A DNA stretch of 64,000 nt from an uncultured Gammaproteobacteria bacterium (GCA_964457465.1 CAYWEJ010000001.1:17991-81990), one strand, 5' to 3'; positions 2,165 to 55,215 are shown, counted from the first letter of the stretch. A program made the numbers and translations. Notes: generated by a model not told the origin, from the sequence alone.

Positions 2165-2905
2165 TTGTGTATAATAAATACTGTGAAATTATCAATTATT
2201 ATTCCAGCATATAACGAGGAAAAGACAATCACATCAATTTTGGAAGAGGTGCAAAATGTCAAAATCGACTCAGTAGATAAAGAAATAATTGTAGTCAATG
2301 ATCACTCAACCGACAGTACATCTAAAATTTTGGAAAAAATAGCCAAAACTAATTCTGCAATTAAAGTTTTTAGCCACGAAATTAATAAAGGAAAGGGTGC
2401 AGCAGTAAGAACCGGTTTTGAAAAAGCAACTGGTGACTATGTGGTCATCCAAGATGCAGATATGGAGTATAGTCCAAGCTATCTTGTTAGTTTATTAAAA
2501 CCAATCGTTTCTGGAGAAGCTCAGGTAGTTTTTGGAACAAGGCTTAGGGAAATCCCTGACTTAGAAGGGCATGGAACAATGTCAAAGACCCGTTTCCTTT
2601 TACACTTTTTTGGAAATAGATTTTTAAGTCTGATTACAAGCATTCTTTACTTCCAATGGATAACAGATATGGAGACATGCTACAAGATCTTCCCACGTAT
2701 TTTTTTAGAAAAAGCAAATTTGTCAGGTGAAGGTTTTAATTTTGAGCCAGAAATTACAGCAAAACTTATTAAGGCAGGCTATAAGATAGTTGAATTACCA
2801 ATTAAGACAAAGCCACGAGGTTATAACGAAGGAAAAAAACTACAAACATTTCCAGAGGGTTTTATCGCTCTGTGGACTCTTTTTAAGTACCGGTTCGTAA
2901 ATTAG
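2165..2905 (+). CDS. GT2 polyprenol-phosphate sugar synthase, Dpm1/GtrB-like (soluble form); true start probably GTG 2183 (MKLSIIIPAYNEE...)
   Basis: Contains IIIPAYNEE, 'VVNDHSTDST', 'IQDADMEY' (DXD) and 'DMETCYKIFPR' (D-x-x-C-G/Y-x-K motif of the Dpm1/GtrB/ArnC family). Its stop is one nucleotide before the start of an ArnT/PMT-like gene. Confidence 0.7.
   Translation: MCIINTVKLSIIIPAYNEEKTITSILEEVQNVKIDSVDKEIIVVNDHSTDSTSKILEKIAKTNSAIKVFSHEINKGKGAAVRTGFEKATGDYVVIQDADMEYSPSYLVSLLKPIVSGEAQVVFGTRLREIPDLEGHGTMSKTRFLLHFFGNRFLSLITSILYFQWITDMETCYKIFPRIFLEKANLSGEGFNFEPEITAKLIKAGYKIVELPIKTKPRGYNEGKKLQTFPEGFIALWTLFKYRFVN
2167..2175 (+). promoter_or_regulatory. extended -10 element (TGtgTATAAT) about 7 nt upstream of the in-frame GTG at 2183; putative leaderless promoter
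   Basis: Read directly: tgtgtataat. It lies inside the N-terminal extension that the ORF track assigns from TTG 2165. Confidence 0.35.
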
Positions 2906-2906
2906 T

Positions 2907-4586
2907 ATGTCAAAAGTGCTCGATTTTATTACAGAATGGTCGATTGGTATCTTAATAGCATTATTTCTATTAGCATCTTTTCTAAGATTGAATAGCCTTG
3001 ACCAAATCCCTGTTGGGCTCCACGCTGATGAAGCATACTTTGGATATAATGCTTACTCGATTGCTCAGACGCTAAGAGATGCTACTGGTAATTTTTTACC
3101 CATACATCTCCAGTCATTTTTATATAGCCCAGCAGGCTATTCATACATTGTTATTCCGAGTATGTATATTTTTGATCTCACGCCATTTGCAGTAAGATTG
3201 CCAGGGGTAATTTTTGGAATAGCAACGGTGGTTTTTTCATACTTTTTTGTCATGAAGCTATGCAAAAGCTTAAAATATAGCAAGCTTTTAGGACTCGCAG
3301 TCTGTGCGCTCCTTGCTATCTCTCCTTGGCATATCAATCTATCCCGAGCGTCAGCAGAGAATGTTGTCGTAGTTTTTCTTATAATGTGCGGTGTTTATTT
3401 TTACATTAAATGGGTCGACAAGCAGAAGAATTTGTTCATCATTCTTTCATTGGTTTTTTTCATAACGACATACTTTTTTTATCAAGCTCCTAGGGCTTTT
3501 CTTCCTCTTTTCTTACCAATTCTCTTTTTACTTTATAGACCAAGAGTCTCATTGAGAAAAGTTCTCATTATGGTAGGGCTATATGTATTTTGCATAGCTC
3601 TTCCTGTGTTTTTGATAATTTCATCTGACACTCTTTCGTATAGATTAAAAATGCTTTCTGTATTTAATTCCCCTAGAACAAATGCATTACTTTTTGAATC
3701 AATCACAGAGGACGGACATAGGCAGAGTCCAGTCCTGGAAGTCAGACTATTTCATAACAAAGTTGCAGGATATGCATCAGAGATATTTAGTGGCTATATG
3801 AAATATTTTTCGTATGACTTTTTATTTACAGACCAAAACTTTCCAGACAGGTATCGAGTTCCAAACATGGGCTTGCTTTACATTTTTGAATTACCATTTC
3901 TTATTGCTGGAATATACTTTATTTTTAGATATCGTGAGAAATTTGGGTATCTTTCTTTAGCTTGGGTTGCAATAGGCTTTATTGGTGCGTCTTTGACCTA
4001 CGATGATATCCCAAACCTTCAGAGAACCATTATTGTTTTTCCAGCACTGCATATTATTATTGGCTATGGAGTAATTAATGTATTCAGGTTTACCCCCAGG
4101 AAATATTTGCCTGCTTTTGGGATCATTTTTTCTTTAGTCGTACTATATTTCTTTAGCTATTATCTTCATCAATATTATGTTCATCAATTTGTTCGTAAGC
4201 CAATTTATCGTCAGCAGGGTTACAAAGAGCTTGTAGAGTCTTTGCAAATTGAGATTCCAAACTACAAGAGTTTTAATATTACTTCAAATGAATCGTCTCC
4301 ACTTATTATGTTTCTTTTTTACCTAAAATATGATCCGAAAGTATTTCAAAAATTTATTACAACTCAAAAACATAATTATCTTACAGAAGACTTTGGAAAA
4401 ATTAGTTTTGATCGATATAATTTTGTTCCCGAGGAATGCCCAAGTCATAAAAATACTGATCCGCTCATACTTTCTGTAGATTTAGGAAGATGCGGGGTGT
4501 CTGATAAAAAAAACATTGTCAAAGAAATCACCAGAAGCGATGGAAGTGTTGTTTTTAGGATTGTCAAGACAAATCGTAAGGAATAA
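2907..4586 (+). CDS. ArnT/PMT-like GT-C glycosyltransferase (GT39/GT83-like), paralog 1
   Basis: 559 aa. N-terminal TM followed by a loop with 'GLHADEAYFGYNAYSI' (acidic DE motif), then 'AISPWHINLSRASAENV', many TMs, and a C-terminal soluble domain 'LFYLKYDPKVFQKF'. Three paralogs at 10758-15715 share all of these. Confidence 0.65.
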   Translation: MSKVLDFITEWSIGILIALFLLASFLRLNSLDQIPVGLHADEAYFGYNAYSIAQTLRDATGNFLPIHLQSFLYSPAGYSYIVIPSMYIFDLTPFAVRLPGVIFGIATVVFSYFFVMKLCKSLKYSKLLGLAVCALLAISPWHINLSRASAENVVVVFLIMCGVYFYIKWVDKQKNLFIILSLVFFITTYFFYQAPRAFLPLFLPILFLLYRPRVSLRKVLIMVGLYVFCIALPVFLIISSDTLSYRLKMLSVFNSPRTNALLFESITEDGHRQSPVLEVRLFHNKVAGYASEIFSGYMKYFSYDFLFTDQNFPDRYRVPNMGLLYIFELPFLIAGIYFIFRYREKFGYLSLAWVAIGFIGASLTYDDIPNLQRTIIVFPALHIIIGYGVINVFRFTPRKYLPAFGIIFSLVVLYFFSYYLHQYYVHQFVRKPIYRQQGYKELVESLQIEIPNYKSFNITSNESSPLIMFLFYLKYDPKVFQKFITTQKHNYLTEDFGKISFDRYNFVPEECPSHKNTDPLILSVDLGRCGVSDKKNIVKEITRSDGSVVFRIVKTNRKE

Positions 4587-4590
4587 AAAC

Positions 4591-5505
4591 ATGAAAAAAG
4601 TTGTTATTTCAATATTAGATTATAACGGGCAAGACAAGACAAATGCATGTTTAAAATCTCTTGAAGGACTTAGTCTTCCAGATATATCGCTTCGAGTTCT
4701 TGTTATTGATAACTATCCTGAGGGAAAATTTGTTTTGACTGCGAAATTACCTAAGCTTACAGTTGATATTATTAAGACTAAAGAAAATAAGGGTTTTGCG
4801 GGAGGACATAATGTTGGCTTTGATTTTGCAATGAAAAATGGAGCAGACTACGTTATTATTCTGAACAATGATACCTTTGTTGATAAAAACCTTGTTAAAG
4901 AGTTAGTAAGCTCAGCAGAAGAAGATAATAATAGAGGTGCAATTGTCCCAAAAATCTATTTTGCAAAAGGCCATGAATATCACAAAGATGCATACAAAAC
5001 AAATGAACTAGGAAAAGTATTTTGGTATGCTGGAGGAAATATCGATTGGGATAACATTAATGGTGTTCATCGTGGTGTTGATCAAGTTGATAGAGGCCAA
5101 TACAACACTGAAGAAGAGACCGAGCTCCTTACTGGATGCTGTGTGCTTTTTACCGCTGAGGTATTACGAAAAACGAAAGGATTTGATGAAAGATATTTTC
5201 TGTATTACGAAGATGCTGATCTAAATGAGCGACTCAAGGCTCTTGGCTATATCGTTTGGTATAACCCTAAGGCAGTCTTGTGGCACATTAATGCAGGTTC
5301 AACGGGAGGGTCTGGTTCAAAACTTCAAGACTATTTTATAAGCAGAAATCGTATGCTTTTTGGATCTAAATTTGCGAGAACAAGAACAAAAATTGCGCTT
5401 CTGCGAGAGAGTATGAGAATACTTGCATCTGGACGAGAATGGCAAAAAAAAGGTGTGATAGATTTTTATAAAAGAAAATTTGGTAAAGGAAGTTTCGCTT
5501 TATGA
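4591..5505 (+). CDS. GT2 family glycosyltransferase
   Basis: In-frame ATG 5 nt after the upstream stop. Contains 'VVISILDYNGQDKT', 'IDNYPEG', 'YYEDADL' (DXD) and a long C-terminal region typical of GT2 rhamnosyl-/galactosyl-transferase-like proteins. Confidence 0.7.
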   Translation: MKKVVISILDYNGQDKTNACLKSLEGLSLPDISLRVLVIDNYPEGKFVLTAKLPKLTVDIIKTKENKGFAGGHNVGFDFAMKNGADYVIILNNDTFVDKNLVKELVSSAEEDNNRGAIVPKIYFAKGHEYHKDAYKTNELGKVFWYAGGNIDWDNINGVHRGVDQVDRGQYNTEEETELLTGCCVLFTAEVLRKTKGFDERYFLYYEDADLNERLKALGYIVWYNPKAVLWHINAGSTGGSGSKLQDYFISRNRMLFGSKFARTRTKIALLRESMRILASGREWQKKGVIDFYKRKFGKGSFAL

Positions 5506-6251
5506 ATGATAAGATTACAGCCGTAATAATTGCAAAAAATGAAGAGGAGATGATAGGAGATTGCCTGAGATCTCTCTCATTTTGTGATGCTCTCATCGTT
5601 GTTGATAATTCGTCTAGTGATAATACAGTGGGAATTGCAAAAAAGGTGGGTGCGAAAATAATTACTGTTAAATCAGATAATCTTTCAGAATTGAGAAGCG
5701 CACCTTTAAAAAAAATATCAACAGAGTATGTGCTCTATATAGATGCAGATGAACGAGTAACAAAAGAGCTTGCAGATGAGATACTCGGAACTATCTCATC
5801 AGGAACAGATGTTGTAGCATTTTACCTTTTTCGTCAAAATTATTATTTTGGCAACCATCCATGGCCTAAAAAAGAGCGACTTGAGCGATTGTTTAAGACA
5901 GAAGCATTAAAAGGTTGGAGAGGGATTCTTCACGAATCACCTATTTTTTTGGGAGAAACAGGTGAATTTAGAAATCCATTACTTCACTATACTCATAGGA
6001 ATTTTTCCTCAATGGTGACAAAGACAAATGACTGGTCAGTAAAGGAAGCTGAGTTAAGATTTCAAGCTCATCATCCACCTATGAGTTGGTGGAGATTTCC
6101 ACGTGTGATGATAGGCGCATTTTTCCAATCGTATATCGGAAGCCAAGGCTACAAAGCGGGAATGGTCGGATTATTAGAAAGTATATATCAGGCTTTTAGT
6201 ATGTTTGTTACATACGCTAAATTATGGGAGCTGCAACAGAGAGAAAAGTAG
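5502..6251 (+). CDS. GT2 family glycosyltransferase (short WaaE/KdtX-like type)
   Basis: 'ITAVIIAKNEEEMIGDCL', 'IVVDNSSSDNTVGIAKKVGAKII' and 'YIDADERV'. ATGA overlap with the upstream gene. A paralog lies at 19556-20323. Confidence 0.7.
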   Translation: MNDKITAVIIAKNEEEMIGDCLRSLSFCDALIVVDNSSSDNTVGIAKKVGAKIITVKSDNLSELRSAPLKKISTEYVLYIDADERVTKELADEILGTISSGTDVVAFYLFRQNYYFGNHPWPKKERLERLFKTEALKGWRGILHESPIFLGETGEFRNPLLHYTHRNFSSMVTKTNDWSVKEAELRFQAHHPPMSWWRFPRVMIGAFFQSYIGSQGYKAGMVGLLESIYQAFSMFVTYAKLWELQQREK

Positions 6252-6546: not shown

Positions 6547-7626
6547 ATGAAGATAGCAATTTTCGATCCATATCTGAATACAATGTCGGGAGGAGAGAAG
6601 TATATGTTGTCTCTTGCGTTTTGTTTAAAGGAGGCACATGACGTCTCAATCATGTGGGATAAGTCACCAAAAGATGAGATAGTATCTCTTGCACGAAAAA
6701 GATTCTCATATAATCTTGAAGAATTTACATTTGTGTCTTCGATTTTCACCTCACAATTATCTATGCTTGATAGATATAGAAAAAGTAAGGAATATGATGT
6801 CGTTATCTATCTAAGTGATGGGAGTATCCCAGTTTTAGCATGTAGTCTTATTATTCATTTTCAGTCCCCTATGCTTTGGGTGCGAGGTAGGAGTATAAAA
6901 AATAGACTCAAACTAAAAAAAGCAAAAGATATAATATGCAATTCTAGATTCACCAAAAAATACATTGATAAATCATTTGGAGTTAATAGCACTGTTTTGT
7001 ATCCGCCGGTATTGCTTCAAGGATCAGTGAGTAATAAAAAAGAGAATCTCATTCTAAATGTAGGTAGATTCGGAATTAACCATGCTGGGTCAAGCTACAA
7101 GAAACAAGACGTTTTAGCTCAGGCTTTTGAAAAAATGGCAAAAGAGAATAACACGAAAGATTGGAGATTAGTTTTTATTATGAGCACTTTGGAGCAGGAT
7201 AGAGATGCTCTTGATGATTTTATTACAAAGTATAAAAAAAATAATATGGATTTTGTCATTAATCCTGATAACGATACATTATGGGAATATTATAGAAAAG
7301 CTAAAATTTATTGGCATGGAGCTGGATATGGCGAAGATGTCGACTTACATCCTGATCGAGCAGAACATTTCGGCATTTCAACAGTTGAAGCTATGGGAAT
7401 GGGGGCAGTGCCTGTTGTGTTTAGCGCTGGAGGTCAAAAAGAAATAGTTGATCATCAGGTAAATGGTATACTGTGGAGTACGCTAGATGAGTTAGAGCGA
7501 TACACTCTTGATCTTATGGAGAGTCAAGAACTCTTGGACAAGTTGTCAAAAAAGTCGATTATAGATGCTCAAAAGTATTCACTTGACTCATTCTGTCAGC
7601 ATATTAATGAAATAATCAGACAATGA
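6547..7626 (+). CDS. GT4 family glycosyltransferase
   Basis: N-terminal 'MKIAIFDPY...SGGEKYM' and C-terminal 'FGISTVEAMGMGAVPVVFSAGGQKEIV' (GT4 E-x7-E region). Confidence 0.7.
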   Translation: MKIAIFDPYLNTMSGGEKYMLSLAFCLKEAHDVSIMWDKSPKDEIVSLARKRFSYNLEEFTFVSSIFTSQLSMLDRYRKSKEYDVVIYLSDGSIPVLACSLIIHFQSPMLWVRGRSIKNRLKLKKAKDIICNSRFTKKYIDKSFGVNSTVLYPPVLLQGSVSNKKENLILNVGRFGINHAGSSYKKQDVLAQAFEKMAKENNTKDWRLVFIMSTLEQDRDALDDFITKYKKNNMDFVINPDNDTLWEYYRKAKIYWHGAGYGEDVDLHPDRAEHFGISTVEAMGMGAVPVVFSAGGQKEIVDHQVNGILWSTLDELERYTLDLMESQELLDKLSKKSIIDAQKYSLDSFCQHINEIIRQ

Positions 7627-9842
7627 AAAAAGATAAGATTTGGATTGCTCTTTTTTTATTCGCTGTATTAGCTTTTTTTCATCCCTTGCTCTCAAGCAAA
7701 GTCCCGATCCCTACTGATGTATTAGTAAACTTCTTTTATCCATTAAGGGATTCATATACAACTGAATACCCAAGAGGAGTCCCCTATAAGAACCCACTTA
7801 TAAGTGATCCTGTTACTCAACAAATTCCATGGAGAGCCCTCTCTGTAGATCTCATCAAAAGCGGACAGTTGCCTTTATGGAACCCATATCAAATGGCAGG
7901 ATACCCACTATTTCAAAATATTCAAAGTGCATCATTCTATATTTTTAATATTTTCTTCTTTATTTTTCCATTTATTGAGTCGTGGTCTCTATACATAATT
8001 TTAGAAGTTGTGTTAGCAGGAATTTTTATGTATTTATACTTGAGAAATCAGAATCTTTCTGCTGCTGCCGCGTTTTTTGGTGGGATTACTTTTTCATTTT
8101 CAGGTTTTTTTATATCTTGGTTAGAGTGGGGAACAATTGGACACACAGCGCTCTGGGCTCCACTTATGTTGTTAAGCGTTGATCGATTTCTTACATCAAG
8201 AAGGCTCTATTGGCTTGTGATTTTAGTATTTTCTCTTGCTTGCGCATTACTTGCTGGACATTTACAGACGTTCATTTATATTTTCTTGACTCTTTGTGGT
8301 TATATAATATACCAGGCTATTTGTCATAAAAAAATAACTTCAATTTTTCCTGTTTTTCTATCTATCATATTATTTATTTTTATTACAGCAGTTTTATGGA
8401 TTCCACAGCTACAATTTGTTCTTCAATCAGCAAGGAATGTAGATCAGGATTGGCATAGAGCAGGATGGTTTATCCCAATTCAAAATATAGTGCAATTTAT
8501 AGGACCAAATTTTTTTGGTAATCCAGCAACAGGAAATTATTGGGGATTATGGAACTATGGTGAATTTGTTGGTTATGTTGGGATTGCGCCATTGCTTTTT
8601 GCCATCTTGGCCTTGTGGAAAAAAGTAAGCGGTTATCTTTTTTGGTTTGTATTACTTGCCTTTGTTTTTCTATTTGCTTATGACAATCCTATTTCGCATA
8701 TTCCTTTTCAGCTATCTTTACCATTTATTGCCTCAACCCAGCCGACGCGATTAATTTTTTTAGCAGATCTCGCATTAAGTATTTTAGCAGCAAAAGGTTT
8801 AGAAAATTTTATGAGAGAGAAAAAAAACATCCTTCAGCCATTTATTTTGTTCTCAATATTATTTTTAGGAATATTTCTTTATGGTTTTATAGGGGTAAAA
8901 CTGCAAGTAATTTCTGCTGAGAATTTTAGAATCGCGTTTAAAAATCTTATAGTTCCTTTCATCTTATTTTTTGCAATTACAAGCGTATTAATTGTTAAAA
9001 AATGCATCAAAAAAATTCATTCCAATATATTTGTAATTTTTATAATTTTTTTGACAGTATTTGACCTTTTGTATTTTGCTCAAAAATATACAGTATTTTC
9101 GAATAAAGAATATTTTTATCCGAAAACAAAGATAATTAATTATTTAACCTCACAAAAAGATATATTTAGAGTAATGACCACAGATAGAAGCATTCTACAT
9201 CCAAATATATCAACCTTTTATAGAATACAAAGCGTAGATGGCTACGACCCGCTTTATCTGCAGCGATTTGGTGAATTTATGACTGCAGTTGATAGAGATC
9301 TACCTGACATAAGTGGACCTTTTGGCTTTAACAGAATAGTCCACAAAGATTATAAAGAATCTTCATTTTATAATCTCCTTGGTGTGAAGTATATATTGTC
9401 GTTAACAGATATAACGGAAAAGAATCTACGAAAAGTTTATCAAGAAGGTGAGACAAGAGTATATGAGAACGTAAACGTTTTTCCAAGAGTATTTTTTGTA
9501 GGTAGTGTTAAAAAAGCGTCTAGTAAAAATGAAGCAATTACTATGCTCTTTGAGCATAAATCTGATCTTTATAAAACTGCGATAGTGGAGAATACGCATC
9601 TACAAGATACAAATTTTTCAATTGGTGAAGTGACTATTTTAAAGTATTCTGAGAACAAAATAGTCATTAAAACTAAAAACAATGGAGAAGGATTTTTGGT
9701 TCTGACAGATGCATATTATCCTTCGTGGTCAGTTAGTATCGATGGAAAGAAACAGACGATAGTTCTTACAGATTTTACGTTTAGAGGAGTGGTTGTCCCC
9801 AAAGGCGATCATAAGGTAGAATTCAAGAATAATCTTATATGA
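7623..9842 (+). CDS. YfhO-like polytopic membrane protein (GT-C-type candidate)
   Basis: 739 aa with about 13 or more TM helices. C-terminal domain 'FLVLTDAYYPSWSVSIDGKKQTI...FRGVVVPKGDHKVEFKN' carries the shared YfhO-like motif. ATGA overlap upstream. Confidence 0.5.
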   Translation: MKKDKIWIALFLFAVLAFFHPLLSSKVPIPTDVLVNFFYPLRDSYTTEYPRGVPYKNPLISDPVTQQIPWRALSVDLIKSGQLPLWNPYQMAGYPLFQNIQSASFYIFNIFFFIFPFIESWSLYIILEVVLAGIFMYLYLRNQNLSAAAAFFGGITFSFSGFFISWLEWGTIGHTALWAPLMLLSVDRFLTSRRLYWLVILVFSLACALLAGHLQTFIYIFLTLCGYIIYQAICHKKITSIFPVFLSIILFIFITAVLWIPQLQFVLQSARNVDQDWHRAGWFIPIQNIVQFIGPNFFGNPATGNYWGLWNYGEFVGYVGIAPLLFAILALWKKVSGYLFWFVLLAFVFLFAYDNPISHIPFQLSLPFIASTQPTRLIFLADLALSILAAKGLENFMREKKNILQPFILFSILFLGIFLYGFIGVKLQVISAENFRIAFKNLIVPFILFFAITSVLIVKKCIKKIHSNIFVIFIIFLTVFDLLYFAQKYTVFSNKEYFYPKTKIINYLTSQKDIFRVMTTDRSILHPNISTFYRIQSVDGYDPLYLQRFGEFMTAVDRDLPDISGPFGFNRIVHKDYKESSFYNLLGVKYILSLTDITEKNLRKVYQEGETRVYENVNVFPRVFFVGSVKKASSKNEAITMLFEHKSDLYKTAIVENTHLQDTNFSIGEVTILKYSENKIVIKTKNNGEGFLVLTDAYYPSWSVSIDGKKQTIVLTDFTFRGVVVPKGDHKVEFKNNLI

Positions 9843-10786
9843 AAGTAAGTATTGTTGTACCAAATTACAACGGAGAAAGTTTGATCAAAGAAAATCTCCC
9901 TTCAATAGTAAAAGCTCTTGTTTTTGCTCAGAAGAAAAATGAGATTCTTGGTGAATTAGTAATTGTGGATGACGCTTCATCTGATGGGAGTGTAATATTC
10001 CTAAAAGAGTTTCAGCATGAAACAAAGAGCATTGAAGTTATTGTTCACGTGAATGAGAAAAATAAAGGCTTTTCACCAACAGTAAATACTGGGGTTAGAA
10101 AGTCTACTGGTGATTTGGTGGTTTTACTTAATTCAGACGTGATACCAGATGAAGATTTTCTTATCCCTCTAATTGCGCATTTTGAAGATGAGAATGTCTT
10201 CGCAGTTGCTTGTATGGATAAAAGTATAGAAGATGGTAAGACTGTGTTGAGAGGTAGAGGGGTTGGCACGTGGAAAAGAGGTTTTCTTGCACATAAGCTA
10301 GGTGATTTAGATGCTAACAACACACTTTGGGCAAGTGGAGGAAGTAGTATGTTTGATAGGAAAAAATGGGACAAGCTTGGAGGTCTATGTGAGTTATATG
10401 CACCTTACTATTGGGAGGATATTGATCTTTCATATCGTGCATTGAAGGCAGGGTATAAAATACTCTTTGAAAAAAAGAGTACAGTCGTTCATAAACACGA
10501 AGAAGGGTCTATTAAGAAAAGTCAATCGAAAGGGAAGGTGAGCAAGATCGTAAATAGAAATCAACACATATTCACCTTACTCAACGCTACTGACAAAAAT
10601 ATTCTATATAGTTATTTTGTTAATTGTCCAATGCATTTTTTAGCTGCAATTAAGAATAATGATACCTCATATATTTTGGGTACTCTGATGACGATTAAGA
10701 TGATGCCAAAAATCCTTGAGTATAGAAAGAGAGTTCAGAAAATGGCTGTAGTGTCTGATGCTGGTGTTATTTCGCTATTTACTTAG
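9839..10786 (+). CDS. GT2 family glycosyltransferase
   Basis: 'VSIVVPNYNGESLI', 'VIVDDASSDGS' and 'YWEDIDLSYR' (DXD). Confidence 0.7.
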   Translation: MKVSIVVPNYNGESLIKENLPSIVKALVFAQKKNEILGELVIVDDASSDGSVIFLKEFQHETKSIEVIVHVNEKNKGFSPTVNTGVRKSTGDLVVLLNSDVIPDEDFLIPLIAHFEDENVFAVACMDKSIEDGKTVLRGRGVGTWKRGFLAHKLGDLDANNTLWASGGSSMFDRKKWDKLGGLCELYAPYYWEDIDLSYRALKAGYKILFEKKSTVVHKHEEGSIKKSQSKGKVSKIVNRNQHIFTLLNATDKNILYSYFVNCPMHFLAAIKNNDTSYILGTLMTIKMMPKILEYRKRVQKMAVVSDAGVISLFT

Positions 10787-12473
10787 TTCAATTAAAGTGA
10801 GTAAAAAAAGTTTTTCTTCATTTTTAAATACAAACTTTTTTCTGATTCTTGTATTCGCTTTATCTGCTTTTATTCGATTCTATCAAATAAGCCAAGTTCC
10901 AGTTTCACTTTATTGGGATGAGATTGCAGTGGGGTACAATGCATATTCTATTTTACATACAGGTAAAGACGAGTATGGCAACTATCTACCAGTTCTTTTT
11001 GAGTCATACCATGACCAGAAAATGCCATTATTTGTTTATCTATCCTCAGTTAGTATTGCCTTTTTTGGCCTAAATGAGTTTGCTGTTAGATTCCCATCTG
11101 CCATTTTTGGCCTTACTGGAATAGTTTTCTTATTTTTTCTTATTAAAGAATTAACAAATAAAGTTGAAAAAAGCAAATACTATCTTGCACTCTTATCAGC
11201 ATTTATTTTTTGTATTACTCCTTGGCATATCATTTTTTCTAGAACTGGTTTTGAGGCTAATTTTGCTTTAACGTTTTTACTATCAGGTTTATATTTTTTT
11301 GTTAGAGGTCTAAATAGATCTTTGTATTTTTTGCTGTCAGTTATTTGTTATGTTCTGGCATGTTATACCTATAGAAGCTCATTGCTATTTGCATCATGTA
11401 TCCTATTTTTTCTAATAATTTATTTCTATAAAGATTTAAGAAAAATTGATATCAAAAAGATTATTCTTTTGATACTATTCGCTACAATATTATTTTTACC
11501 ACTTGGACTAAATTTCATACAAAAAGGCGATGAGAGGTTTTCGCAAGTAAGTATTTTTTCCAATCAGAATGAATCAATTGCAACTAATGTAAGGAAGATA
11601 CAGGAGAGTGGTAATTCATTTATTGCAAAAGCTCTTTTTAATAGAAGGATGGTATATGTAAATCAGTTTTTAACAGGGTATTTTTCTCATTTCAAACCTG
11701 ATTTTCTTTTCTCTGCAGGGGATGGGAACCCCCGTCATGGGGTAAAAGGAATGGGAGTCCTATATTACTGGCAGTTGCCCTTCATTTTGATAGGTATTTG
11801 GTATTTTTTGAAACATGATAGAAAGCTGAGTATTATTATGTTTGGTTGGCTTGCAATCTCTCCAATTTCGTCAAGTTTTGCTGTTCCCACACCGCATGCG
11901 TTGAGAGCTTTACCAATGGTTATTCCATTTGCAGTTTTTACCGCTGGAGGAATAATTTGTATACTCCAAATCTTAAAAAGTGAGAGAAATAAATATCTAT
12001 TTGGGATAGTTTTATTTTTTGTAATAATTCTTAATTTGTCTTTTTTTGTTAAACATTATTACATTCAAAACACAGAAATTGCGAATAACCAGTGGGGTGA
12101 TGGATACAAGCAGCTTGTAGTTGAGGTTGCAAATTTGAGCGACAAATACGATAAAGTTGTTGTTTCTGGACATTATTGGCAACCATATGCATACTTTCTC
12201 TTTTATTTAAAATATGATCCTGTTCTATATCAAAAAAATGGATCATCAGTGTCATTTGATAAATATATATTTGGTGGAACTGACTGGGACAAAAGTGTTG
12301 GAAGGGCTGAATTGAACGATGTCGATCTTAGAAGTTATGCAAACAACGCTAAAAAAATACTTGTTGCATTATCTCCTGCTGAATACCTCACACAAGTAAG
12401 TCATGTTATACCGATTAAAAATATAAAAAACCATAAAGGCGAAGTTGTTTTTATATTGGCTCAAGTAAATTAA
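10758..12473 (+). CDS. ArnT/PMT-like GT-C glycosyltransferase, paralog 2 (start may instead be the in-frame GTG at 10797)
   Basis: 'VSLYWDEIAVGYNAYSIL', 'CITPWHIIFSRTGFEANF' and a C-terminal 'FLFYLKYDPVLYQ'. The ORF-track start overlaps the upstream gene by 29 nt. Confidence 0.6.
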   Translation: MLVLFRYLLSSIKVSKKSFSSFLNTNFFLILVFALSAFIRFYQISQVPVSLYWDEIAVGYNAYSILHTGKDEYGNYLPVLFESYHDQKMPLFVYLSSVSIAFFGLNEFAVRFPSAIFGLTGIVFLFFLIKELTNKVEKSKYYLALLSAFIFCITPWHIIFSRTGFEANFALTFLLSGLYFFVRGLNRSLYFLLSVICYVLACYTYRSSLLFASCILFFLIIYFYKDLRKIDIKKIILLILFATILFLPLGLNFIQKGDERFSQVSIFSNQNESIATNVRKIQESGNSFIAKALFNRRMVYVNQFLTGYFSHFKPDFLFSAGDGNPRHGVKGMGVLYYWQLPFILIGIWYFLKHDRKLSIIMFGWLAISPISSSFAVPTPHALRALPMVIPFAVFTAGGIICILQILKSERNKYLFGIVLFFVIILNLSFFVKHYYIQNTEIANNQWGDGYKQLVVEVANLSDKYDKVVVSGHYWQPYAYFLFYLKYDPVLYQKNGSSVSFDKYIFGGTDWDKSVGRAELNDVDLRSYANNAKKILVALSPAEYLTQVSHVIPIKNIKNHKGEVVFILAQVN

Positions 12474-12494
12474 TTATTGGTATACTGAAATTGT

Positions 12495-15715: not shown

Positions 15716-15767
15716 AAACCCTGTTGCAAGTTGTAAAATAAGTCATATACAATCGTATGTATTATTG

Positions 15768-43693: not shown

Positions 43694-44817
43694 AGATAGG
43701 TATTGATGCAAATGAGGCAAATGTCGAAAAAAAAGTGGGAATTAGTGAGTATGTCTATGAGCTATTATTAAAATTATATCCACTAGCATCATCCAATGAT
43801 AATTTCATAATATATCTAAAAGATCAACCAATCGGGTTCCCACAAACATCAGCTTATTGGACTTACAAGATATTTGGACCTAAGAAACTTTGGACACAAT
43901 TTGCTCTTCCATTAAAACTTTTTACTCATAGAAAAAAACCTGATATTTTCTTCTCTCCAGCACATTATGCTCCAAGAATTTCGCCAGTCCCAACAGTAAT
44001 ATCCATTATGGATCTCGCTTTTTTTCATTTTCCTGATTATTTTACAAAAAAGGATCTTACCCAACTACATAGATGGACAAATTATTCAGTTAAACAAGCA
44101 AAGGCTATTATTACGATAAGTGAAGCGTCTAAAAATGATATAATCAGTTTGTATCACATTAATAAAGAAAAAATTCACGTTGTCTATCCAGGAATTAAAG
44201 AAGTTAAATCTTTAGATCCACATATTTATTCTATGGAAGAATTACAAAGCAGATATAATATTTCCAAGAACTATCTCCTTTTTGTTGGCACTCTGCAGCC
44301 ACGAAAGAATATTGCTCGTTTAATAGAGGCATTCTCAAAAGTTGTGGCAAAGGAAGGTGTGAGTACTGAGTTGCAACTTGTTGTTGTTGGCAAGAAAGGT
44401 TGGAAATATGAAGAGATTTTAAACGCACCTCGAAAATTTGGCGTTGAAGATAGAGTAAAATTTCTTGATTTTGTTGATGATAGTAATTTGGTTTTACTCT
44501 ATAAAAATGCACAGATTTTTGTCTGGCCTAGTCTCTACGAGGGTTTTGGTCTTCCTATTCTTGAAGCAATGCAAAATAATTGCCCTGTTATTACAAGTAA
44601 TATAAGCAGTATGCCTGAGGCGGGTGGTGATGCAGCGTTATATGTTGATCCTATGGACGTGGACGATATTGCCAAAAAGATTCAAAAAGTACTTTCTGAT
44701 AAGAAGTTGAGATTACATATGATAGAAAAAGGAAATAAGCATATTAAGAAATTTAGTTGGGATCATGCTGCAAAGAAGACTCTGGAAGTTCTGCGGGAAG
44801 TCGCTCATAATAGATAG
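43690..44817 (+). CDS. GT4 family glycosyltransferase
   Basis: 'MKIGIDANEANVEKKVGISEYV' and 'EGFGLPILEAMQNNCPVITS'. Confidence 0.7.
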   Translation: MKIGIDANEANVEKKVGISEYVYELLLKLYPLASSNDNFIIYLKDQPIGFPQTSAYWTYKIFGPKKLWTQFALPLKLFTHRKKPDIFFSPAHYAPRISPVPTVISIMDLAFFHFPDYFTKKDLTQLHRWTNYSVKQAKAIITISEASKNDIISLYHINKEKIHVVYPGIKEVKSLDPHIYSMEELQSRYNISKNYLLFVGTLQPRKNIARLIEAFSKVVAKEGVSTELQLVVVGKKGWKYEEILNAPRKFGVEDRVKFLDFVDDSNLVLLYKNAQIFVWPSLYEGFGLPILEAMQNNCPVITSNISSMPEAGGDAALYVDPMDVDDIAKKIQKVLSDKKLRLHMIEKGNKHIKKFSWDHAAKKTLEVLREVAHNR

Positions 44818-44818
44818 T

Positions 44819-45424
44819 ATGAAAGATAAGAGTGGCACAGCATTGTCTGCAAATGAGGCAATAAGGAGAGGAGCTAATAGAATGTCAGCTATCTCACTTG
44901 AGGCGACCAATTTCGTACTTCATATAATAGGTATGATCCCTTCTCATCACCTTCGACGATTTTTTTACCGTTTGGGAGGTATGGAGATTGGGAGTGGATC
45001 AAGTATTCATATGGGTATGAGAGTGTATGACTCATCCCATATTGTTGTTGGTAAAGATACTATTATTGGAGAGGGTGCAGTGCTTGATGGGAGAGCAGAA
45101 CTTCATATTGGGAATCATGTTGATATAGCATCAGAAGTAATGATTTATAACTCTGAACATAATATCCATGCGGAGGATTTTGCTGGTAAGGACGGCGTTG
45201 TAAAAGAGAAAGTTGTTATTGAAGATTATGTATTTATAGGTCCTCGTGCAATTATTTTACCTGGTGTGACTGTAGGAAAAGGAGCAGTTATTGGGGCAGG
45301 GGCTGTCGTTACAAAAGATGTAAAACCATTTTCAATTGTAGCAGGCGTACCTGCTAAAGAGATAGGCGAGAGAAGTAATAAAGAACCTTCTTATACGTTA
45401 GGGAGGGCTGCATGGTTTCGATAA
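44819..45424 (+). CDS. hexapeptide-repeat (LbH) sugar O/N-acetyltransferase
   Basis: In-frame ATG 1 nt after the upstream stop. Imperfect hexapeptide repeats 'IGEGAVLDGRAELHIGNHVDIASEVMIYNSEHN...IGPRAIILPGVTVGKGAVIGAGAVV'. Confidence 0.7.
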   Translation: MKDKSGTALSANEAIRRGANRMSAISLEATNFVLHIIGMIPSHHLRRFFYRLGGMEIGSGSSIHMGMRVYDSSHIVVGKDTIIGEGAVLDGRAELHIGNHVDIASEVMIYNSEHNIHAEDFAGKDGVVKEKVVIEDYVFIGPRAIILPGVTVGKGAVIGAGAVVTKDVKPFSIVAGVPAKEIGERSNKEPSYTLGRAAWFR

Positions 45425-51944: not shown

Positions 51945-53053
51945 GAATCGGAATTGATGCGAGATTTTGGAACGAAACAGGAGTTGGCAGGTATATTAAA
52001 AACTTGATTCTTGTTTTGGAAAAAATTGATAAGAACAATTCCTATGTTATTTTCACCTTGCCAAAGAACTTTGAAGGAATTAAGAGCGTAATTAATAGTC
52101 CACGTTTTGAAATAAAAAGTGCTGCTGTTCCATGGCATTCATTTAGAGAGCAGTACCAGTTCTCAAAGATTATTGATAAAGAAAAACTTGATCTTATGCA
52201 TTTTCCTTATTTTTCGGTCCCGCTATTTTATACAAGGCCATTTATCATTACCATTCACGATCTCATCCTGCATCATTTTTCAACAGGCGAGGCTACAACG
52301 TTGCCGATACCATTATATAGAGCTAAGTTATTAGCATATAAATATATCATTGCAAAGGTAGCAAAGAAATCTAGGAAGATTATAACTGTTTCACAAGCAA
52401 CAAAGGATGAAATAGTTGATCATTTGTCGATAAGTCCTGAAAAAATATCGGTAATTTATGAAGGAGTTGACGATGCTTTGATCACGCCCAACCAAGATAA
52501 AAAAAACTCTAAGAAGTTTTTACTTCATGTTGGCAATGTATACCCTCACAAGAATATAGATCGTCTCATTGATGCATTTATTCGCGCAGACTTACATGAT
52601 GTTGATTTATTATTTGTTGGAAAAAAAGATTACTTTATGAAGAAATTAGAGAAAAAAGTCAGCAGGATAGGAGTAAAGAACATACAGTTTTTAGGTTTTG
52701 TTGAAGATAAAGACCTTGCGTTACTTTACAGAAATGCTATTGCAACAATCGTGCCATCTCTCATGGAAGGCTTTGGTTTGCCTGTTCTTGAAGCTATGGC
52801 AAATAATTCTCTTGTAATTGCCTCGAATGTCCCTTCCTTAAAGGAGATCGCTAAGGATGGTGCGGTGTATATTGATCCTTTCAATATAGAGGAAATTTCT
52901 GATAAGATTCGAAGCATTGCTTATGCTGAAAAAAACTCTTTTACATCACTTAAAGAAAAAGGTCAAAAAATTGCAAAATCATACTCATGGGAAGATATGG
53001 GTAAACAAACACTAGAAATATATGAAAGTTGCCTTGGTATACGATCGGATTAA
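51941..53053 (+). CDS. GT4 family glycosyltransferase
   Basis: 'MRIGIDARFWNETGVGRY' and 'EGFGLPVLEAMANNSLVIAS'. Confidence 0.7.
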   Translation: MRIGIDARFWNETGVGRYIKNLILVLEKIDKNNSYVIFTLPKNFEGIKSVINSPRFEIKSAAVPWHSFREQYQFSKIIDKEKLDLMHFPYFSVPLFYTRPFIITIHDLILHHFSTGEATTLPIPLYRAKLLAYKYIIAKVAKKSRKIITVSQATKDEIVDHLSISPEKISVIYEGVDDALITPNQDKKNSKKFLLHVGNVYPHKNIDRLIDAFIRADLHDVDLLFVGKKDYFMKKLEKKVSRIGVKNIQFLGFVEDKDLALLYRNAIATIVPSLMEGFGLPVLEAMANNSLVIASNVPSLKEIAKDGAVYIDPFNIEEISDKIRSIAYAEKNSFTSLKEKGQKIAKSYSWEDMGKQTLEIYESCLGIRSD

Positions 53054-54119
53054 TAAATGGGGAGGAGCTGAGAGAGTGCTTCTTGCCTTGCATGAATTAT
53101 TTCCCGATGCTCCGCTTTTTACCTCGGTTCATAATAAGAAGAAAGCCAAGTGGATTAGAGATTTATCAATTACCCCATCTTTTCTTCAGGACTTTCCGTT
53201 CGCAAAAGATGCTCATGAACTTTATCCTCTTTTAATGCCTGCAGCATTTGAGCAGTTTAATCTTGATGATTTTGATGTCGTTATTTCAGTAACCAGCGAA
53301 TCTGCAAAAGGGATTATTACAAAACCTCACACAATTCACATTTGCTATTGTCTAACTCCTACTCGATATTTATGGAGTGGGTATGAAGAATATTTTAATA
53401 AAAAAGTTATTAGGTTTCTTTCGTATCCGGCTACATGGTATTTGAGAAAATGGGATAAAATTGCCTCAAAAAGACCTGATGTCTTTGTTGCAATTTCAGA
53501 AGAGGTCAATAGAAGAATAAAAACCTATTACCAGTTAGAATCAGAAATTATTCATCCTCCTGTAGATCTATTTTTACATAGACAGCAGAAAAAGACAGTG
53601 CAAAAAAAGAATTATTTTTTAGTAGTTTCTAGGCTCGTCTCTTATAAAAGAATTGATATTGCGATAGATTCATGCAATCAGCTAAAGATTCCTCTAAAGA
53701 TAGTTGGTGTAGGAAGTCAGTATCATGCCTTGAGAAAGAAGGCAGGTCCTACGATAGAGTTTTTAGGAGAAGTATCTGACGAGAAGTTAAGACTGCTATA
53801 TGAGGAGGCACAAGCACTTCTTTTCCCTGGCTTTGAAGATTTTGGGATAGTTATGGTTGAGGCGCTTGGTCATGGTACACCAGTAATCGCCTATAACAAA
53901 GGTGGGGCAAAAGATATTGTCACTCATAAAAAATCAGGTATTCTCTTCTCAGATCAAACAAGTAGATCATTGTCGCAAGCTATTGGAGAATTCAAAAAAT
54001 CGAATTTCAAAAGATCAGATTTATATAAAGATGCATTCCGATTTAAGAAAGAAATTTTTTTTAAAAAAATCTTAAAACTTGTCAACGACAGATTGCAAAA
54101 CTCATCAAAGAGATTATAA
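53022..54119 (+). CDS. GT4 family glycosyltransferase
   Basis: 'MKVALVYDRINKWGGAERV' and 'FEDFGIVMVEALGHGTPVIAY'. Overlaps the upstream gene by 32 nt in a different frame. Confidence 0.65.
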   Translation: MKVALVYDRINKWGGAERVLLALHELFPDAPLFTSVHNKKKAKWIRDLSITPSFLQDFPFAKDAHELYPLLMPAAFEQFNLDDFDVVISVTSESAKGIITKPHTIHICYCLTPTRYLWSGYEEYFNKKVIRFLSYPATWYLRKWDKIASKRPDVFVAISEEVNRRIKTYYQLESEIIHPPVDLFLHRQQKKTVQKKNYFLVVSRLVSYKRIDIAIDSCNQLKIPLKIVGVGSQYHALRKKAGPTIEFLGEVSDEKLRLLYEEAQALLFPGFEDFGIVMVEALGHGTPVIAYNKGGAKDIVTHKKSGILFSDQTSRSLSQAIGEFKKSNFKRSDLYKDAFRFKKEIFFKKILKLVNDRLQNSSKRL

Positions 54120-54132
54120 TAATAATGGATTT

Positions 54133-55215
54133 ATGAAAATTCTTATTTTTGCCGGTGGAGTTGGCTCAAGACTTTGGCCTTTGTCGAGAAAAAACACACC
54201 TAAGCAGTTTGGCCAAATAATTGGTGATAAATCCACTCTTCAACAGACGATTGATAGATTAAGTCCTGAATTTAGTCCAGAAGATATTTATATTGCAACA
54301 GGTATTCAATATAAAGATACTGTTACTGCTCAGCTTAACAAAATTCCGGAGGAAAATTTTATTTTTGAACCTACTATGAGGGATGTCGGTCCGGCAATCG
54401 GTCTCAATGCATTTTTACTTGCCAAATTGCATCCTGACGAACCTATTGCAATTCTTTGGAGTGATCATATGGTAAAAAATCACGTTATGTTTCGACATGT
54501 ACTGAGGCTGGCTGAGGAAAGTATTACGAAATATGATGCAAATTTTGTTTTTATAGGACAGGAGCCACGATTTGCAAATCAAAATTTAGGATGGATTCAG
54601 CTTGGAGAAAAGATTAAGGAGGAGAATGGTGCTGAAATTTACGAATTCAATAAGCTTCTTTATAGGCCGAAACTTGAACAAGCTGAAGATTATTTCTCCT
54701 CTGAAAATTATGTATGGAACTTAGGCTACTTCGTAACTACACCACGATTTTTAGTCTCGTTATTTCAAGAACATGCACCGGAAATGTACGAAAGATTACT
54801 AGAGATTCAGCAGGCATATCAGACACCCGAATTTGAGTCTGTTGTTCAAGATATATACCCTACCCTTGAAAAAATTAGCTTTGACGATGCGATTCTGGTC
54901 AAGATGTCATCAAGAAATGTGTTTGTTATTTCTACTGATCTTGGCTGGAGCGATATTGGAGCTTGGGATGCGCTTAAAGAGGCATTAGCAGAATCTTCTG
55001 AGGAAAATATCACAAAAGGTAAAGTGCTTTTGGAGGACACAAGAGATTCCCTTGTTTTTAATTATACTGACCAGCTATCAGTAGGTATAGATCTTGCAGA
55101 AATGTTAGTTATTAATACTGATGATGTATTATTGGTTTGTCCAAAAAGTTCAGTTCCGAAAATAAAGAAGTTAGTTGAGAATTTGAAAGGTACTTCTCAT
55201 GAACATTTAGCATAG
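54133..55215 (+). CDS. manC: mannose-1-phosphate guanylyltransferase-like sugar nucleotidyltransferase
   Basis: In-frame ATG. 'MKILIFAGGVGSRLWPLSRKNTPKQF' is a classic ManC/GMP N-terminus. About 360 aa. Confidence 0.7.
   Translation: MKILIFAGGVGSRLWPLSRKNTPKQFGQIIGDKSTLQQTIDRLSPEFSPEDIYIATGIQYKDTVTAQLNKIPEENFIFEPTMRDVGPAIGLNAFLLAKLHPDEPIAILWSDHMVKNHVMFRHVLRLAEESITKYDANFVFIGQEPRFANQNLGWIQLGEKIKEENGAEIYEFNKLLYRPKLEQAEDYFSSENYVWNLGYFVTTPRFLVSLFQEHAPEMYERLLEIQQAYQTPEFESVVQDIYPTLEKISFDDAILVKMSSRNVFVISTDLGWSDIGAWDALKEALAESSEENITKGKVLLEDTRDSLVFNYTDQLSVGIDLAEMLVINTDDVLLVCPKSSVPKIKKLVENLKGTSHEHLA

Follow-up and report, generated by a model that had tools for sequence, protein, structure and literature searches.

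The window analysed here (64,000 nucleotides, GCA_964457465.1, CAYWEJ010000001.1:17991-81990, deposited as an uncultured Gammaproteobacteria bacterium) is a large island of cell-envelope glycosylation genes in a Candidatus Levybacteria genome, from the Candidate Phyla Radiation (CPR)/Patescibacteria. Three of its genes, named ORF1, ORF2 and ORF3, code for family 2 glycosyltransferases (GT2) and are the subject of this work. A previous inspection of the DNA without database searches (the sequence-only reading) had assigned them to the lineage of lipid-phosphate sugar synthases, within an island that abounds in GT-C glycosyltransferases, and coverage by hidden Markov models (HMM), predicted fold and gene context agree with it; all three lie among GT-C genes. 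Pfam and NCBIfam scans of 51 ORFs revealed a single glycan-assembly island between positions ~490 and 57,900 (~58 kb), past which RecO, an aminoacyl-tRNA synthetase, MraZ and RsmH are encoded. The G+C content is ~33% and nearly all genes are on the plus strand. The closest homologues belong to Patescibacteria, Candidatus Levybacteria among them; for ORF1, one in GCA_016214555.1 shares 75% identity, and for ORF2 an identical protein (100%) is on record in NCBI and, on a 3.9-kb contig, in Logan. No exact match to ORF3 was obtained. A related contig, L012 (CAZHKZ010000002.1), shares eight syntenic genes with the window (29-66% protein identity, 60-69% for six of them); its title is also 'uncultured Gammaproteobacteria bacterium', a label that is probably a binning or taxonomy error.

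The island holds nine GT2 genes and eight GT4 genes or fragments, together with a Wzx flippase, a 1,025-amino acid (aa) Wzy_C protein and a small Bac_transf phosphoglycosyl transferase (PGT). Its sugar-modifying genes code for GalE, a DegT aminotransferase, a WecD-like N-acetyltransferase, a second SDR enzyme, a WcaF-like acetyltransferase, two methyltransferases and ManC. Besides, at least 11 polytopic proteins have GT-C-clan matches: four paralogous PMT_2 proteins, three further PMT_2-like ones, YfhO, a PTPS_related/YfhO-like protein, an AftD-like protein of 1,116 aa and the family encoded next to ORF3. The genomes of these bacteria are tiny, yet this whole length is given over to envelope glycosylation, with an excess of GT-C enzymes over lipid-sugar synthases like that of mycobacteria. 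The enzymes that make lipid-linked donors are an entry point to the surface glycans of these uncultured, often host-attached cells.

ORF1 (246 aa), ORF2 (261 aa) and ORF3 (312 aa) all match PF00535. Their position within GT2 was studied by coverage of curated HMMs, profile and sequence searches against the PDB, fold search and profile-profile comparison. The models for ArnC, PgfS, AglJ, PpgS and a haloarchaeal dolichyl phosphate (Dol-P) hexose transferase align with the three proteins over approximately their full length, whereas the curated models of polyprenyl-phosphate glycosyltransferases (Pren-P GTs) do not extend past the first ~100 residues in the six remaining GT2s of the window. On the other hand, models of Leloir enzymes (EpsD, MftF, PgaC, HpsN, rhamnosyltransferase) cover more than 200 residues in four of these remaining GT2s, and they match ORF1, ORF2 and ORF3 at the N-terminus alone; GT2s 5502-6251 and 19556-20323 show an N-terminal match only, with every curated model. 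The PDB neighbours that Foldseek found for the AlphaFold2 (AF2) models are exclusively ArnC, PfDPMS and GtrB in the top 23 positions for ORF1 and the top 19 for ORF2. The Dol-P-mannose synthase PfDPMS is also the best solved sequence relative of both proteins. In hhalign, their family profiles match each other with a probability of 99.7, and the 203 aligned columns take in the acceptor half. Profiles of the C-terminal halves of ORF1 and ORF2 give 10-18 bits against DPMS (decoys at most 6 bits) and no match against ArnC or GtrB, and single-sequence phmmer searches of all nine GT2s with the C-terminal halves of these three solved enzymes were informative for ORF3 only, the scores of ORF1 and ORF2 being marginal. 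Taken together, these comparisons support a predicted placement of the three proteins on the Pren-P GT (DPMS/GtrB/ArnC) side of GT2, apart from the ordinary Leloir GT2s of the window. A search for literature on these enzymes in CPR/Patescibacteria found nothing specific.

The solved enzymes provide the residues to be compared. In GtrB, D94/D96, two juxtamembrane (JM) helices and the arginines R122 and R200, called 'universally conserved' in lipid-phosphate GTs, have been described (PMC4728340). In PfDPMS the motif is 89-DADLQH-94, the phosphate of Dol-P is held at S135 with R117 and R131, the A-loop residues R202/K208 are locked to E12, and the interface (IF) helices are required (PMC5526996). 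For ArnC, the first Asp has been described as the base, together with R128, R137 and R205 (bioRxiv 10.1101/2025.01.29.634835). In the DADLQ motif of the clade, the first Asp (D89, D94 and D100 in PfDPMS, GtrB and ArnC) is the proposed base, while the second Asp and the Gln are metal ligands. The residues of the three ORFs were mapped by MAFFT alignment (Table 1), which can be trusted because it reproduces all the published equivalences among GtrB, PfDPMS and ArnC.

Table 1. Residues of ORF1, ORF2 and ORF3 aligned with functional residues of solved enzymes (PfDPMS numbering)
Position	ORF3	ORF1	ORF2
E12	E11	E18	Q20
D39	D40	D46	D49
D89 (first Asp)	D91	D97	D98
D91 (second Asp)	D93	D99	G100
Q93	Q95	E101	D102
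R117 (GtrB R122, ArnC R128)	R119	R126	K127
R131/S135 (ArnC R137/S141)	R127 or K129/S132	[RK]152/S155, or R143/H147 by hhalign	R140/S144
R202/K208 (GtrB R200, ArnC R205)	R196/K202	R218/K224	absent
Transmembrane (TM) helices	two	none	one hydrophobic C-terminal helix

All the testable Pren-P GT features are present in ORF3 and ORF1. ORF2 has the fold and the acceptor site, and it lacks the A-loop Arg and, in its lineage, the second Asp. The canonical DXD and the N-terminal motif, attributed beforehand to all three genes, are absent from ORF2, which reads I-D98-G-G100-T-D102 and has 'YKQE' instead of 'YNEE'. The missing TM helices do not disqualify ORF1 and ORF2, because PfDPMS without its TM domain is still active and still membrane-bound (PMC5526996); TM-less Pren-P GTs on record include human DPM1, GacI and PpgS. 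An assignment of the donor sugar from nucleotide-contacting residues was ruled out, since the equivalent of DPMS D39 is kept in the UDP-using ArnC and GtrB too. The use of GDP- or UDP-sugars is marked by no residue, and the sugar specificities of the three enzymes cannot be deduced from their sequences.

The motif D-x-x-[CQ]-G-x-K-[LI]-[FY], by which the three genes had been recognised, is of narrower use than proposed. The strings do exist ('DMETCYKIF' in ORF1, with T-C at the [CQ]-G position, 'DTQVGIKLF' in ORF2 and 'DYNCGLKLY' in ORF3), and a loosened regular expression matches these three only out of the nine GT2 genes. However, it is not a signature of the clade: at the aligned position GtrB reads 'PPNTGDFRLM' (D157), PfDPMS 'DPVSGFFAL' and ArnC 'DYGCMLRAY', and D157 of GtrB corresponds to Met in ArnC and to Gly in DPMS (bioRxiv 10.1101/2025.01.29.634835). 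The motif is a local discriminator within the window only. The positions of the genes discussed are collected in Table 2.

Table 2. Genes and features of the window (positions counted from its first nucleotide)
Feature	Position	Strand	Observations
ORF1	2165-2905; probable start GTG 2183	+	PF00535 at 1.7e-34
PMT_2/PMT-type GT-C	2907-4586	+	PF02366 23.6 bits (cutoff 22.7); PMT_2 20.1 bits
GT2	5502-6251		
DUF5652 membrane protein, 79 aa	6253-6492	-	81.7 bits
GT-C array	7623-15715	+	YfhO 7623-9842 (3.5e-27); PMT_2 paralogs at 2e-9 to 7e-14
Leloir GT2 inside GT-C array	9839-10786	+	between YfhO and PMT_2 trio
Tandem PMT_2 paralogs	10758-12473, 12495-14117, 14114-15715	+	294-300 bits to each other
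Large polytopic proteins	15657-17501, 17505-19514, 29130-30629	+, +, -	7-13 predicted TM helices
GT2 of a second GT2/GT-C pair	19556-20323		'DADE' type
GT-C of the second pair	20325-21785		
GalE, UDP-glucose 4-epimerase	22055-23029	+	TIGR01179 397 bits (cutoff 262)
GT4 upstream of Wzx gene	23071-24117	+	Glycos_transf_1 at 3.1e-28; position kept in L008, L010
Wzx/MOP-family flippase	24110-25372	+	Polysacc_synt_3 at 6e-14; 12 predicted TM helices
ORF2, divergent DPMS-like GT2	25359-26144	+	acceptor-phosphate site kept; DXD and A-loop remodelled
GT4	26141-27250	+	Glycos_transf_1 at 7.2e-36; overlaps ORF2 end by 4 nucleotides (nt)
DegT-family sugar aminotransferase (PseC/ArnB-like)	27202-28404	+	PF01041 at 1.3e-133; PseC 392 bits, ArnB 372 bits
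WecD-like GNAT amino-sugar N-acetyltransferase	28401-29120	+	NF008212 98 bits; GNAT domains
Second SDR dehydratase/epimerase	30671-31630	-	near ORF2 block
AftD-like protein, 1,116 aa	36344-39694	+	N-terminal GT-C_AftD (E 1.6e-7)
Small 4-TM membrane protein, 120 aa	39691-40053	+	four predicted TM helices; overlaps next gene by 4 nt
Remote GT-C (AftD/YfhO-like) polytopic protein	40050-41951	+	no own Pfam match
ORF3	41992-42930	+	NF007986 185 bits; D91, D93, Q95, R119, S132, R196, K202 present
WcaF-like acetyltransferase	44765-45424		
Wzy_C protein, 1,025 aa	46257-49334	+	~23 predicted TM segments; Wzy_C at residues 223-427
GT4 nearest to ManC-like gene	53022-54119		
ManC-like guanylyltransferase	54133-55215	+	NTP_transferase 5.9e-23
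Small Bac_transf PGT	55218-55883	+	PF02397 at 5.8e-62; TIGR03025 266 bits

By its sequence, ORF3 is predicted to be a canonical ArnC/GtrB-type Pren-P GT. It matches the ArnC structures with 160 bits (residues 2-289) and GtrB with 136 bits, over a span of 288 residues that includes two predicted TM helices (235-253 and 265-283); it reads D91-A-D93-L-Q95, that is, the 'DADLQ' feature, and it aligns with the JM helices of ArnC. Its upstream neighbour, described beforehand as YfhO-like, deserves this name only remotely. The protein itself has no Pfam match, and among 62 members of its family GT-C_AftD is matched by 5 (best 1.4e-8), YfhO by 4 (best 1.8e-6) and PTPS_related by 2; PDB sequence searches with the protein and with the A3 profile gave no meaningful match. 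Three related loci (L012, L013 and L014; 60-64% identity) include the region before the ORF3 ortholog, and in each of them an ortholog of this gene precedes it, directly adjoining in two and separated by a 435-aa ORF in L013.

The small 4-TM protein encoded before this putative GT-C has no Pfam match even at E<=10 and GtrA was not detected, so it was rejected as a GtrA-family member at the family level. Small multi-TM ORFs that share its '[FL]PY[IV]N[LI]' motif occupy the same position, with the same 4-nt overlap, in two relatives (L012:3680-4075 and L013:2177-2698) and not in L014; no family was found for these ORFs either. The protein is a candidate flippase, accessory protein or GT-C subunit. 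Compared with the parts of a Gtr three-component system, ORF3 is the GtrB-type enzyme, the GT-C is a remote one and the 4-TM protein has the right size, topology and position (kept in 2/3 relatives) without being PF04138. The ORF3 module thus has a three-component layout, but its putative flippase and transferase are outside the classical families. Upstream of it lies the AftD-like gene, whose product has a large extracytoplasmic part and a C-terminal TM helix; this gene precedes the ORF3 module in L012 too.

As regards ORF1, the longest frame opens at TTG 2165, while its homologues open with 'MKLSIIIP', which corresponds to GTG 2183 and is probably the true start. AglJ is the best curated match (119.6 bits, residues 9-242) and the PpgS model aligns over its full length. 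The family profile matches PfDPMS with 84.6 bits over positions 1-234, which comprise both IF helices and the A-loop. The AF2 model (pLDDT 85.8) has predicted helices at 141-162 and 228-244, which resemble those of ORF3 in their hydrophobic and amphipathic character; no TM helix was predicted. Among 61 homologues, D97, D99, E101, R126, S155, D168, R218 and K224 are invariant, as are all the ORF1 residues of Table 1 except the basic residue on JM1. The equivalent of the DADLQ motif is D97-A-D99-M-E101, with Glu replacing Gln in all 61. From its sequence and its model, ORF1 is a candidate TM-less polyprenyl-phosphate glycosyltransferase of the DPMS/AglJ/PpgS kind. The absence of a TM helix, the weak sequence signal of the C-terminal half and the presence of GpgS and MpgS among the Foldseek matches (TMq 0.63-0.69) would also fit a soluble GT2 that acts, in the manner of these two enzymes, on a small phosphorylated or other non-lipid acceptor and is a bystander in the cluster. 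This is very improbable, since the 23 best structural matches are all Pren-P GTs, the alignment with DPMS runs through both IF helices and the A-loop, R126, R218 and K224 (equivalents of lipid-phosphate and A-loop residues) never vary, the two hydrophobic helices resemble those of ORF3, TM-less Pren-P GTs are known and the gene is always among GT-C genes.

ORF1 ends at 2905 and the next gene opens at 2907, which confirms the 1-nt gap already noticed. The product of this second gene is paralogous to the three tandem PMT_2 proteins (158-197 bits) and has 'HADE' after TM1, where these paralogs have 'WDE'; it has an ortholog in L001 (70% identity), and a PDB sequence search gave no meaningful match. 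The four paralogs represent a lineage-specific expansion of one GT-C type, all with an [AW]DE motif after TM1. A GT-C-type gene follows ORF1 within 15 nt in the window and in five related genome contexts, but it is orthologous to that of the window in the closest relative only; elsewhere it codes for another PMT_2, for a protein like 20325-21785 or for YfhO. The pairing of ORF1 with a PMT, suggested by the gene order, is therefore not kept beyond the closest relative, and because the type of the downstream GT-C varies, ORF1 seems to be associated with GT-C arrays in general rather than with one PMT partner.

ORF2 belongs to a different context. The end of the Wzx gene overlaps its start by 14 nt, and GT4 genes lie on both sides of the Wzx-ORF2 pair. 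The order GT4-Wzx-ORF2-GT4 recurs in Woesebacteria and in a 1.08-Mb Patescibacteria genome. Of 80 metagenome loci, 60 are informative for the gene that precedes the ORF2 homologue, and in 40-44 of these it is a directly adjoining Wzx; a GT4 is downstream in 38/65. A profile search of 1.84 billion representatives yielded 1,604 members of the family at E<=1e-30. The best 150 representatives include at least 19 Wzx::GT2 fusions, 7 GT2::GT4 fusions, 2 Wzx::GT2::GT4 fusions (1,061 and 1,093 aa) and ~10 GT2::Leloir-GT2 fusions (examples are P0404, P0413, P0456, P0509 and P0386, and one from Acidimicrobiales, HVM04502.1); the architectures were confirmed by Pfam on a sample, and the fusions were seen on independent contigs. 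These fusions suggest that ORF2, Wzx and GT4 act on the same lipid-linked intermediate. Downstream of the block follow the DegT aminotransferase and the WecD-like acetyltransferase; relatives carry the DegT gene with other companions (in L010, these are GFO_IDH_MocA, a hexapeptide acyltransferase and a FemAB-like protein), which suggests that the same core block may be served by variable amino-sugar donors.

The residues kept by the ORF2 family are those of the acceptor site. The family profile matches PfDPMS with 75.5 bits over positions 6-175, and its 'RKILS' aligns with 'RKLIS' of IF helix 1 of DPMS. D98, R140, D161, G165 and K167 are invariant in the 150 representatives, S144 is found in 145/150 and K127 in 147/150 (Arg in the other 3); Lys is a conservative replacement for the Arg of JM1. 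At the second Asp, the close homologues read 'IDAGMDIDP', with Gly in 56/61; in the wider family this position is Asp in 115/150 and Gly in 34/150, with a carboxylate in the place of the Gln. The column of GtrB R200 is D214 in ORF2 and variable in the family (R 34, Q 30, K 20 of 150), and that of K208 is T220 or a gap. AF2 predicts helices at 138-155 and 221-260. As far as sequences and models tell, ORF2 represents a separate, widespread family in which the first Asp, the JM helices and the site for the acceptor phosphate (Lys/Arg/Ser) are preserved. As the second Asp and the R200-equivalent Arg are missing, the gene overlaps Wzx and GT4, and synteny and fusions link the three, ORF2 is doubtful as a source of free donor; it more likely takes part in the priming or extension of a flipped lipid-linked oligosaccharide than in the supply of a free monosaccharide donor.

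ORF2 could also be a membrane-associated Leloir GT2 that works on a polyprenyl-diphosphate oligosaccharide started by the Bac_transf enzyme, built by GT4s, flipped by Wzx and handled by a Wzy_C-type protein. Such an explanation is possible, though on the unlikely side. The order GT4-Wzx-GT2-GT4 is that of a classical Wzx/Wzy locus, a PGT and a Wzy_C protein are encoded in the window, fusions to GT4 and Leloir GT2 domains exist, the equivalents of R200/R202, K208 and E12 are lost, as is the second Asp in this lineage, and the structural margin over other GT2 folds is modest. Nevertheless, the acceptor-phosphate residues of DPMS and ArnC (K127, R140, S144, 'RKILS') are the best-kept part of the family, the first Asp, proposed as the base for the phosphate nucleophile, does not vary, the nearest folds are the three solved Pren-P GTs, and the PGT is 30 kb away, outside the conserved block.

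A further, rather improbable idea is that the ORF2 family is an undescribed branch of Pren-P GTs which forms one unit with its own Wzx and GT4 and would prime and extend an oligosaccharide on polyprenyl monophosphate, like the haloarchaeal AglJ. Its hallmarks would be Lys for the Arg of JM1, the lack of the A-loop Arg and, in the CPR sub-lineage, D-A-G-x-D replacing DXD. If this were true, there would be a PGT-independent route to flipped lipid-linked glycans in CPR and some Actinobacteria, whose product the GT-C enzymes of the island would use.

The supply of sugars has been related to GalE and ManC, and HMM matches agree with both gene assignments. GalE scores above the TIGR01179 cutoff; a homologue was found in 22/80 metagenome loci, and in the Patescibacteria genome of 1.08 Mb the ORF2 block is preceded by an SDR epimerase gene. 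The ManC-like protein has the NTP_transferase domain, with a GMP domain only and no phosphomannose isomerase (PMI) domain. The match to TIGR01479 spans model positions 4-349 of 467 with 229 bits; for lack of the PMI domain it does not reach the full-length cutoff (373). For the ManC beta-helix the score is 24.9 bits (cutoff 27). With these features it is a predicted mannose-1-phosphate guanylyltransferase of the ManC/CpsB type. The two are not, as had been thought, the only nucleotide-sugar enzymes: the DegT aminotransferase, the WecD-like protein, the second SDR and the WcaF-like protein have to be added. The ManC gene is flanked by three GT4 genes and the PGT gene, whose product is the predicted initiator of a polyprenyl-diphosphate-linked glycan, and its distance to ORF1 is 51 kb, that to ORF3 11 kb. 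GDP-mannose is a common donor for GT4 enzymes, and since they are also adjacent, the GT4s are most simply taken as the clients of ManC.

These data bear on the scheme of the sequence-only reading, in which ORF1, ORF2 and ORF3 would be three independent Pren-P-monosaccharide synthases providing three donors, one branch going from ManC through GDP-mannose to polyprenol-P-mannose (by ORF1) and then to O-mannosylation by the PMT. As a chain of reactions the mannose branch is coherent, but conjectural: ManC lies among GT4s and a PGT, nothing connects it with ORF1, and no sequence feature assigns GDP-mannose to any of the three enzymes. The whole scheme is unlikely. It agrees with the location of the three GT2s on the Pren-P GT side, with a gap of only 1 nt between ORF1 and the following PMT/PMT_2-type GT-C gene, whose product has the DE motif, with a Dol-P-mannose synthase as the best solved relative of ORF1, with a ManC-like gene in the window, and with the GacI/GacK precedent of a Wzx protein proposed to flip monosaccharide-P-undecaprenol beside a TM-less GT2. 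However, the ORF1-PMT pairing is lost beyond the closest relative, ManC is far from ORF1 and embedded among other possible users, no residue pattern separates GDP-mannose from UDP-sugar use, and ORF1 scores highest on AglJ, a Dol-P-hexose enzyme. ORF2, in turn, lacks the Arg of GtrB R200 and is fused elsewhere to GT4s and Leloir GT2s, which is unexpected for a stand-alone donor synthase. The step from three synthases to three different donors is doubtful in the case of ORF2 and plausible for the other two enzymes.

From family placement, residue conservation, predicted fold, synteny and fusions we infer, with somewhat better than even confidence, two roles in the island: ORF3 and ORF1 would be lipid-monophosphate sugar synthases, and ORF2 would belong to the separate Wzx/GT4-linked family. 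Acceptor identity, sugars, flipping and the matching of GT-C enzymes to donors belong to the inferred part of this picture. ORF3, the 4-TM protein and the remote GT-C upstream most likely form a three-component system for Pren-P-sugar synthesis, flipping and transfer on the outer side of the membrane. ORF1, held at the membrane by its two amphipathic helices, most likely supplies a second Pren-P-sugar common to several PMT_2/YfhO-type GT-Cs, as occurs with the mycobacterial PPM; the GT-C array 7623-15715 contains potential users of such donors. ORF2 most likely primes polyprenyl phosphate in the way of AglJ or acts early on a lipid-linked glycan, which would be extended by the GT4s and flipped by Wzx.

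Several observations weigh against this picture of two roles. Outside the N-terminal nucleotide-binding half, the sequence signal between ORF1 or ORF2 and the solved Pren-P GTs is weak, and the JM1 alignment of ORF1 is ambiguous, hhalign giving R143/H147 and MAFFT R152/S155. ORF2 is without an Arg that has been called universally conserved in lipid-phosphate GTs (PMC4728340), and its fusion to GT4 equally fits an ordinary Leloir enzyme acting on an undecaprenyl-diphosphate-linked glycan. In the ORF3 module, the GT-C identity of the upstream protein depends on weak matches in a minority of its family, and with Pfam no kinship of the 4-TM protein with GtrA or other flippases could be detected.

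Most of these findings are annotation of known enzyme types rather than new mechanism: ORF3 codes for a routine enzyme of the ArnC/GtrB type, whose conserved module is unusual in its GT-C, ORF1 for a DPMS-like enzyme that has no TM helix and is well conserved, and the ORF2 family is the interesting lead. Within the CPR families of ORF1 and ORF2, identity is 58-75% for the 120 best homologues listed in each case, and because of this high conservation the assignments would transfer widely. Besides, the Wzx::GT2(::GT4) fusions offer an expressible construct for the coupling of lipid-linked sugar synthesis and flipping.

Other genes of the island can be described briefly. A second GT2/GT-C pair 1 nt apart is formed by 19556-20323 and 20325-21785; this GT2 has a C-terminal TM helix and is not of the Pren-P GT type. 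In the relatives L010 and L011, a similar 250-aa GT2 (compare 19556-20323 and 5502-6251) overlaps a YfhO gene. The small DUF5652 gene, between a GT2 pair and the GT4/YfhO block, has the same place in L001, L002, L005 and L103. In the Wzy_C protein this domain (O-antigen ligase/polymerase) is the only one recognised, and the size is unusually large for a Wzy/WaaL-type protein. The three large polytopic proteins of Table 2 have no Pfam match at E<=10; a counterpart of 17505-19514 (29% identity) is present in the GT-C array of another Levybacteria genome (L002:9436-11433).

Among known systems, ORF3 can be compared with ArnC (PDB 9hwj, 9bhc and 8vxh), the undecaprenyl phosphate (Und-P) 4-deoxy-4-formamido-L-arabinose (Ara4FN) transferase, and GtrB (5ekp), an Und-P glucosyltransferase. 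It aligns with them end to end (GT-A domain, both JM and both TM helices), and its 'HDYNCGLKLY' follows 'GDYGCMLRAY' of ArnC. As in the three-component Gtr and Arn systems, a GT-C gene and a small membrane protein gene adjoin it. Unlike ArnC, ORF3 is far under the curated equivalog cutoff (185 vs 529 bits), for which reason its sugar is not assignable. Its GT-C partner is from a Pfam-orphan family instead of being ArnT or GtrC, and by Pfam the 4-TM protein is not GtrA or ArnE/F. The CsbB/GtcA/YfhO systems of lipoteichoic acid (LTA) glycosylation in Bacillus and Listeria also have a GtrB-type GT2 whose neighbours are a polytopic YfhO-like protein and a small membrane protein, and there is a bona fide YfhO in the window; however, the neighbour of ORF3 is only remotely YfhO/AftD-like and a GtrA-family flippase was not found. 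To our knowledge, CPR bacteria are not known to make LTA.

ORF1 and ORF2 do not have the two TM helices of ArnC and GtrB. Both resemble PfDPMS (5mlz) and DPM1 in the first Asp, the equivalent of R117, IF helix 1 (a basic residue and Ser) and IF helix 2, and differ from DPMS and AglJ in their bacterial (CPR) host and in the lack of TM helices. Compared with DPMS, ORF1 has 'DADMEY' (Glu for Gln) and an insertion of ~14 residues before IF helix 1; in ORF2, R117 is replaced by Lys, E12 by Gln and D91 by Gly, and R202/K208 have no equivalent. With the actinobacterial Ppm1/Pmt system the island shares a DPMS-like GT2 adjoining a PMT/PMT_2 GT-C that has a DE motif after TM1, as well as an enzyme that forms GDP-mannose; in contrast to it, the pairing of ORF1 with a GT-C varies among relatives, and the PMT-like gene is one of four paralogs and barely at the PF02366 threshold. 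Mannose as the sugar and proteins as the acceptors would be conjecture here.

Further parallels are the GacI/GacJ/GacK/GacL system of Streptococcus pyogenes, in which the Wzx-family GacK is the proposed flippase for the monosaccharide lipid, and PpgS/Rv3632/Rv3779 of Mycobacterium tuberculosis. In both, a TM-less GT2 makes N-acetylhexosamine-P-polyprenol and a GT-C uses it, and the PpgS model aligns with ORF1 and ORF2 over its full length. Unlike in the Gac system, no GacJ/DUF2304 partner was found near ORF1 or ORF2, and the Wzx of the ORF2 family overlaps or fuses with the GT2 and has GT4 as part of the unit. Finally, in Haloferax, AglJ primes Dol-P for extension by further glycosyltransferases before flipping, whereas AglD, AglR (Wzx-like) and AglS use a Dol-P-monosaccharide. 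Priming by AglJ and monosaccharide use by AglD/AglR/AglS are the two roles proposed here for the enzymes of the island.

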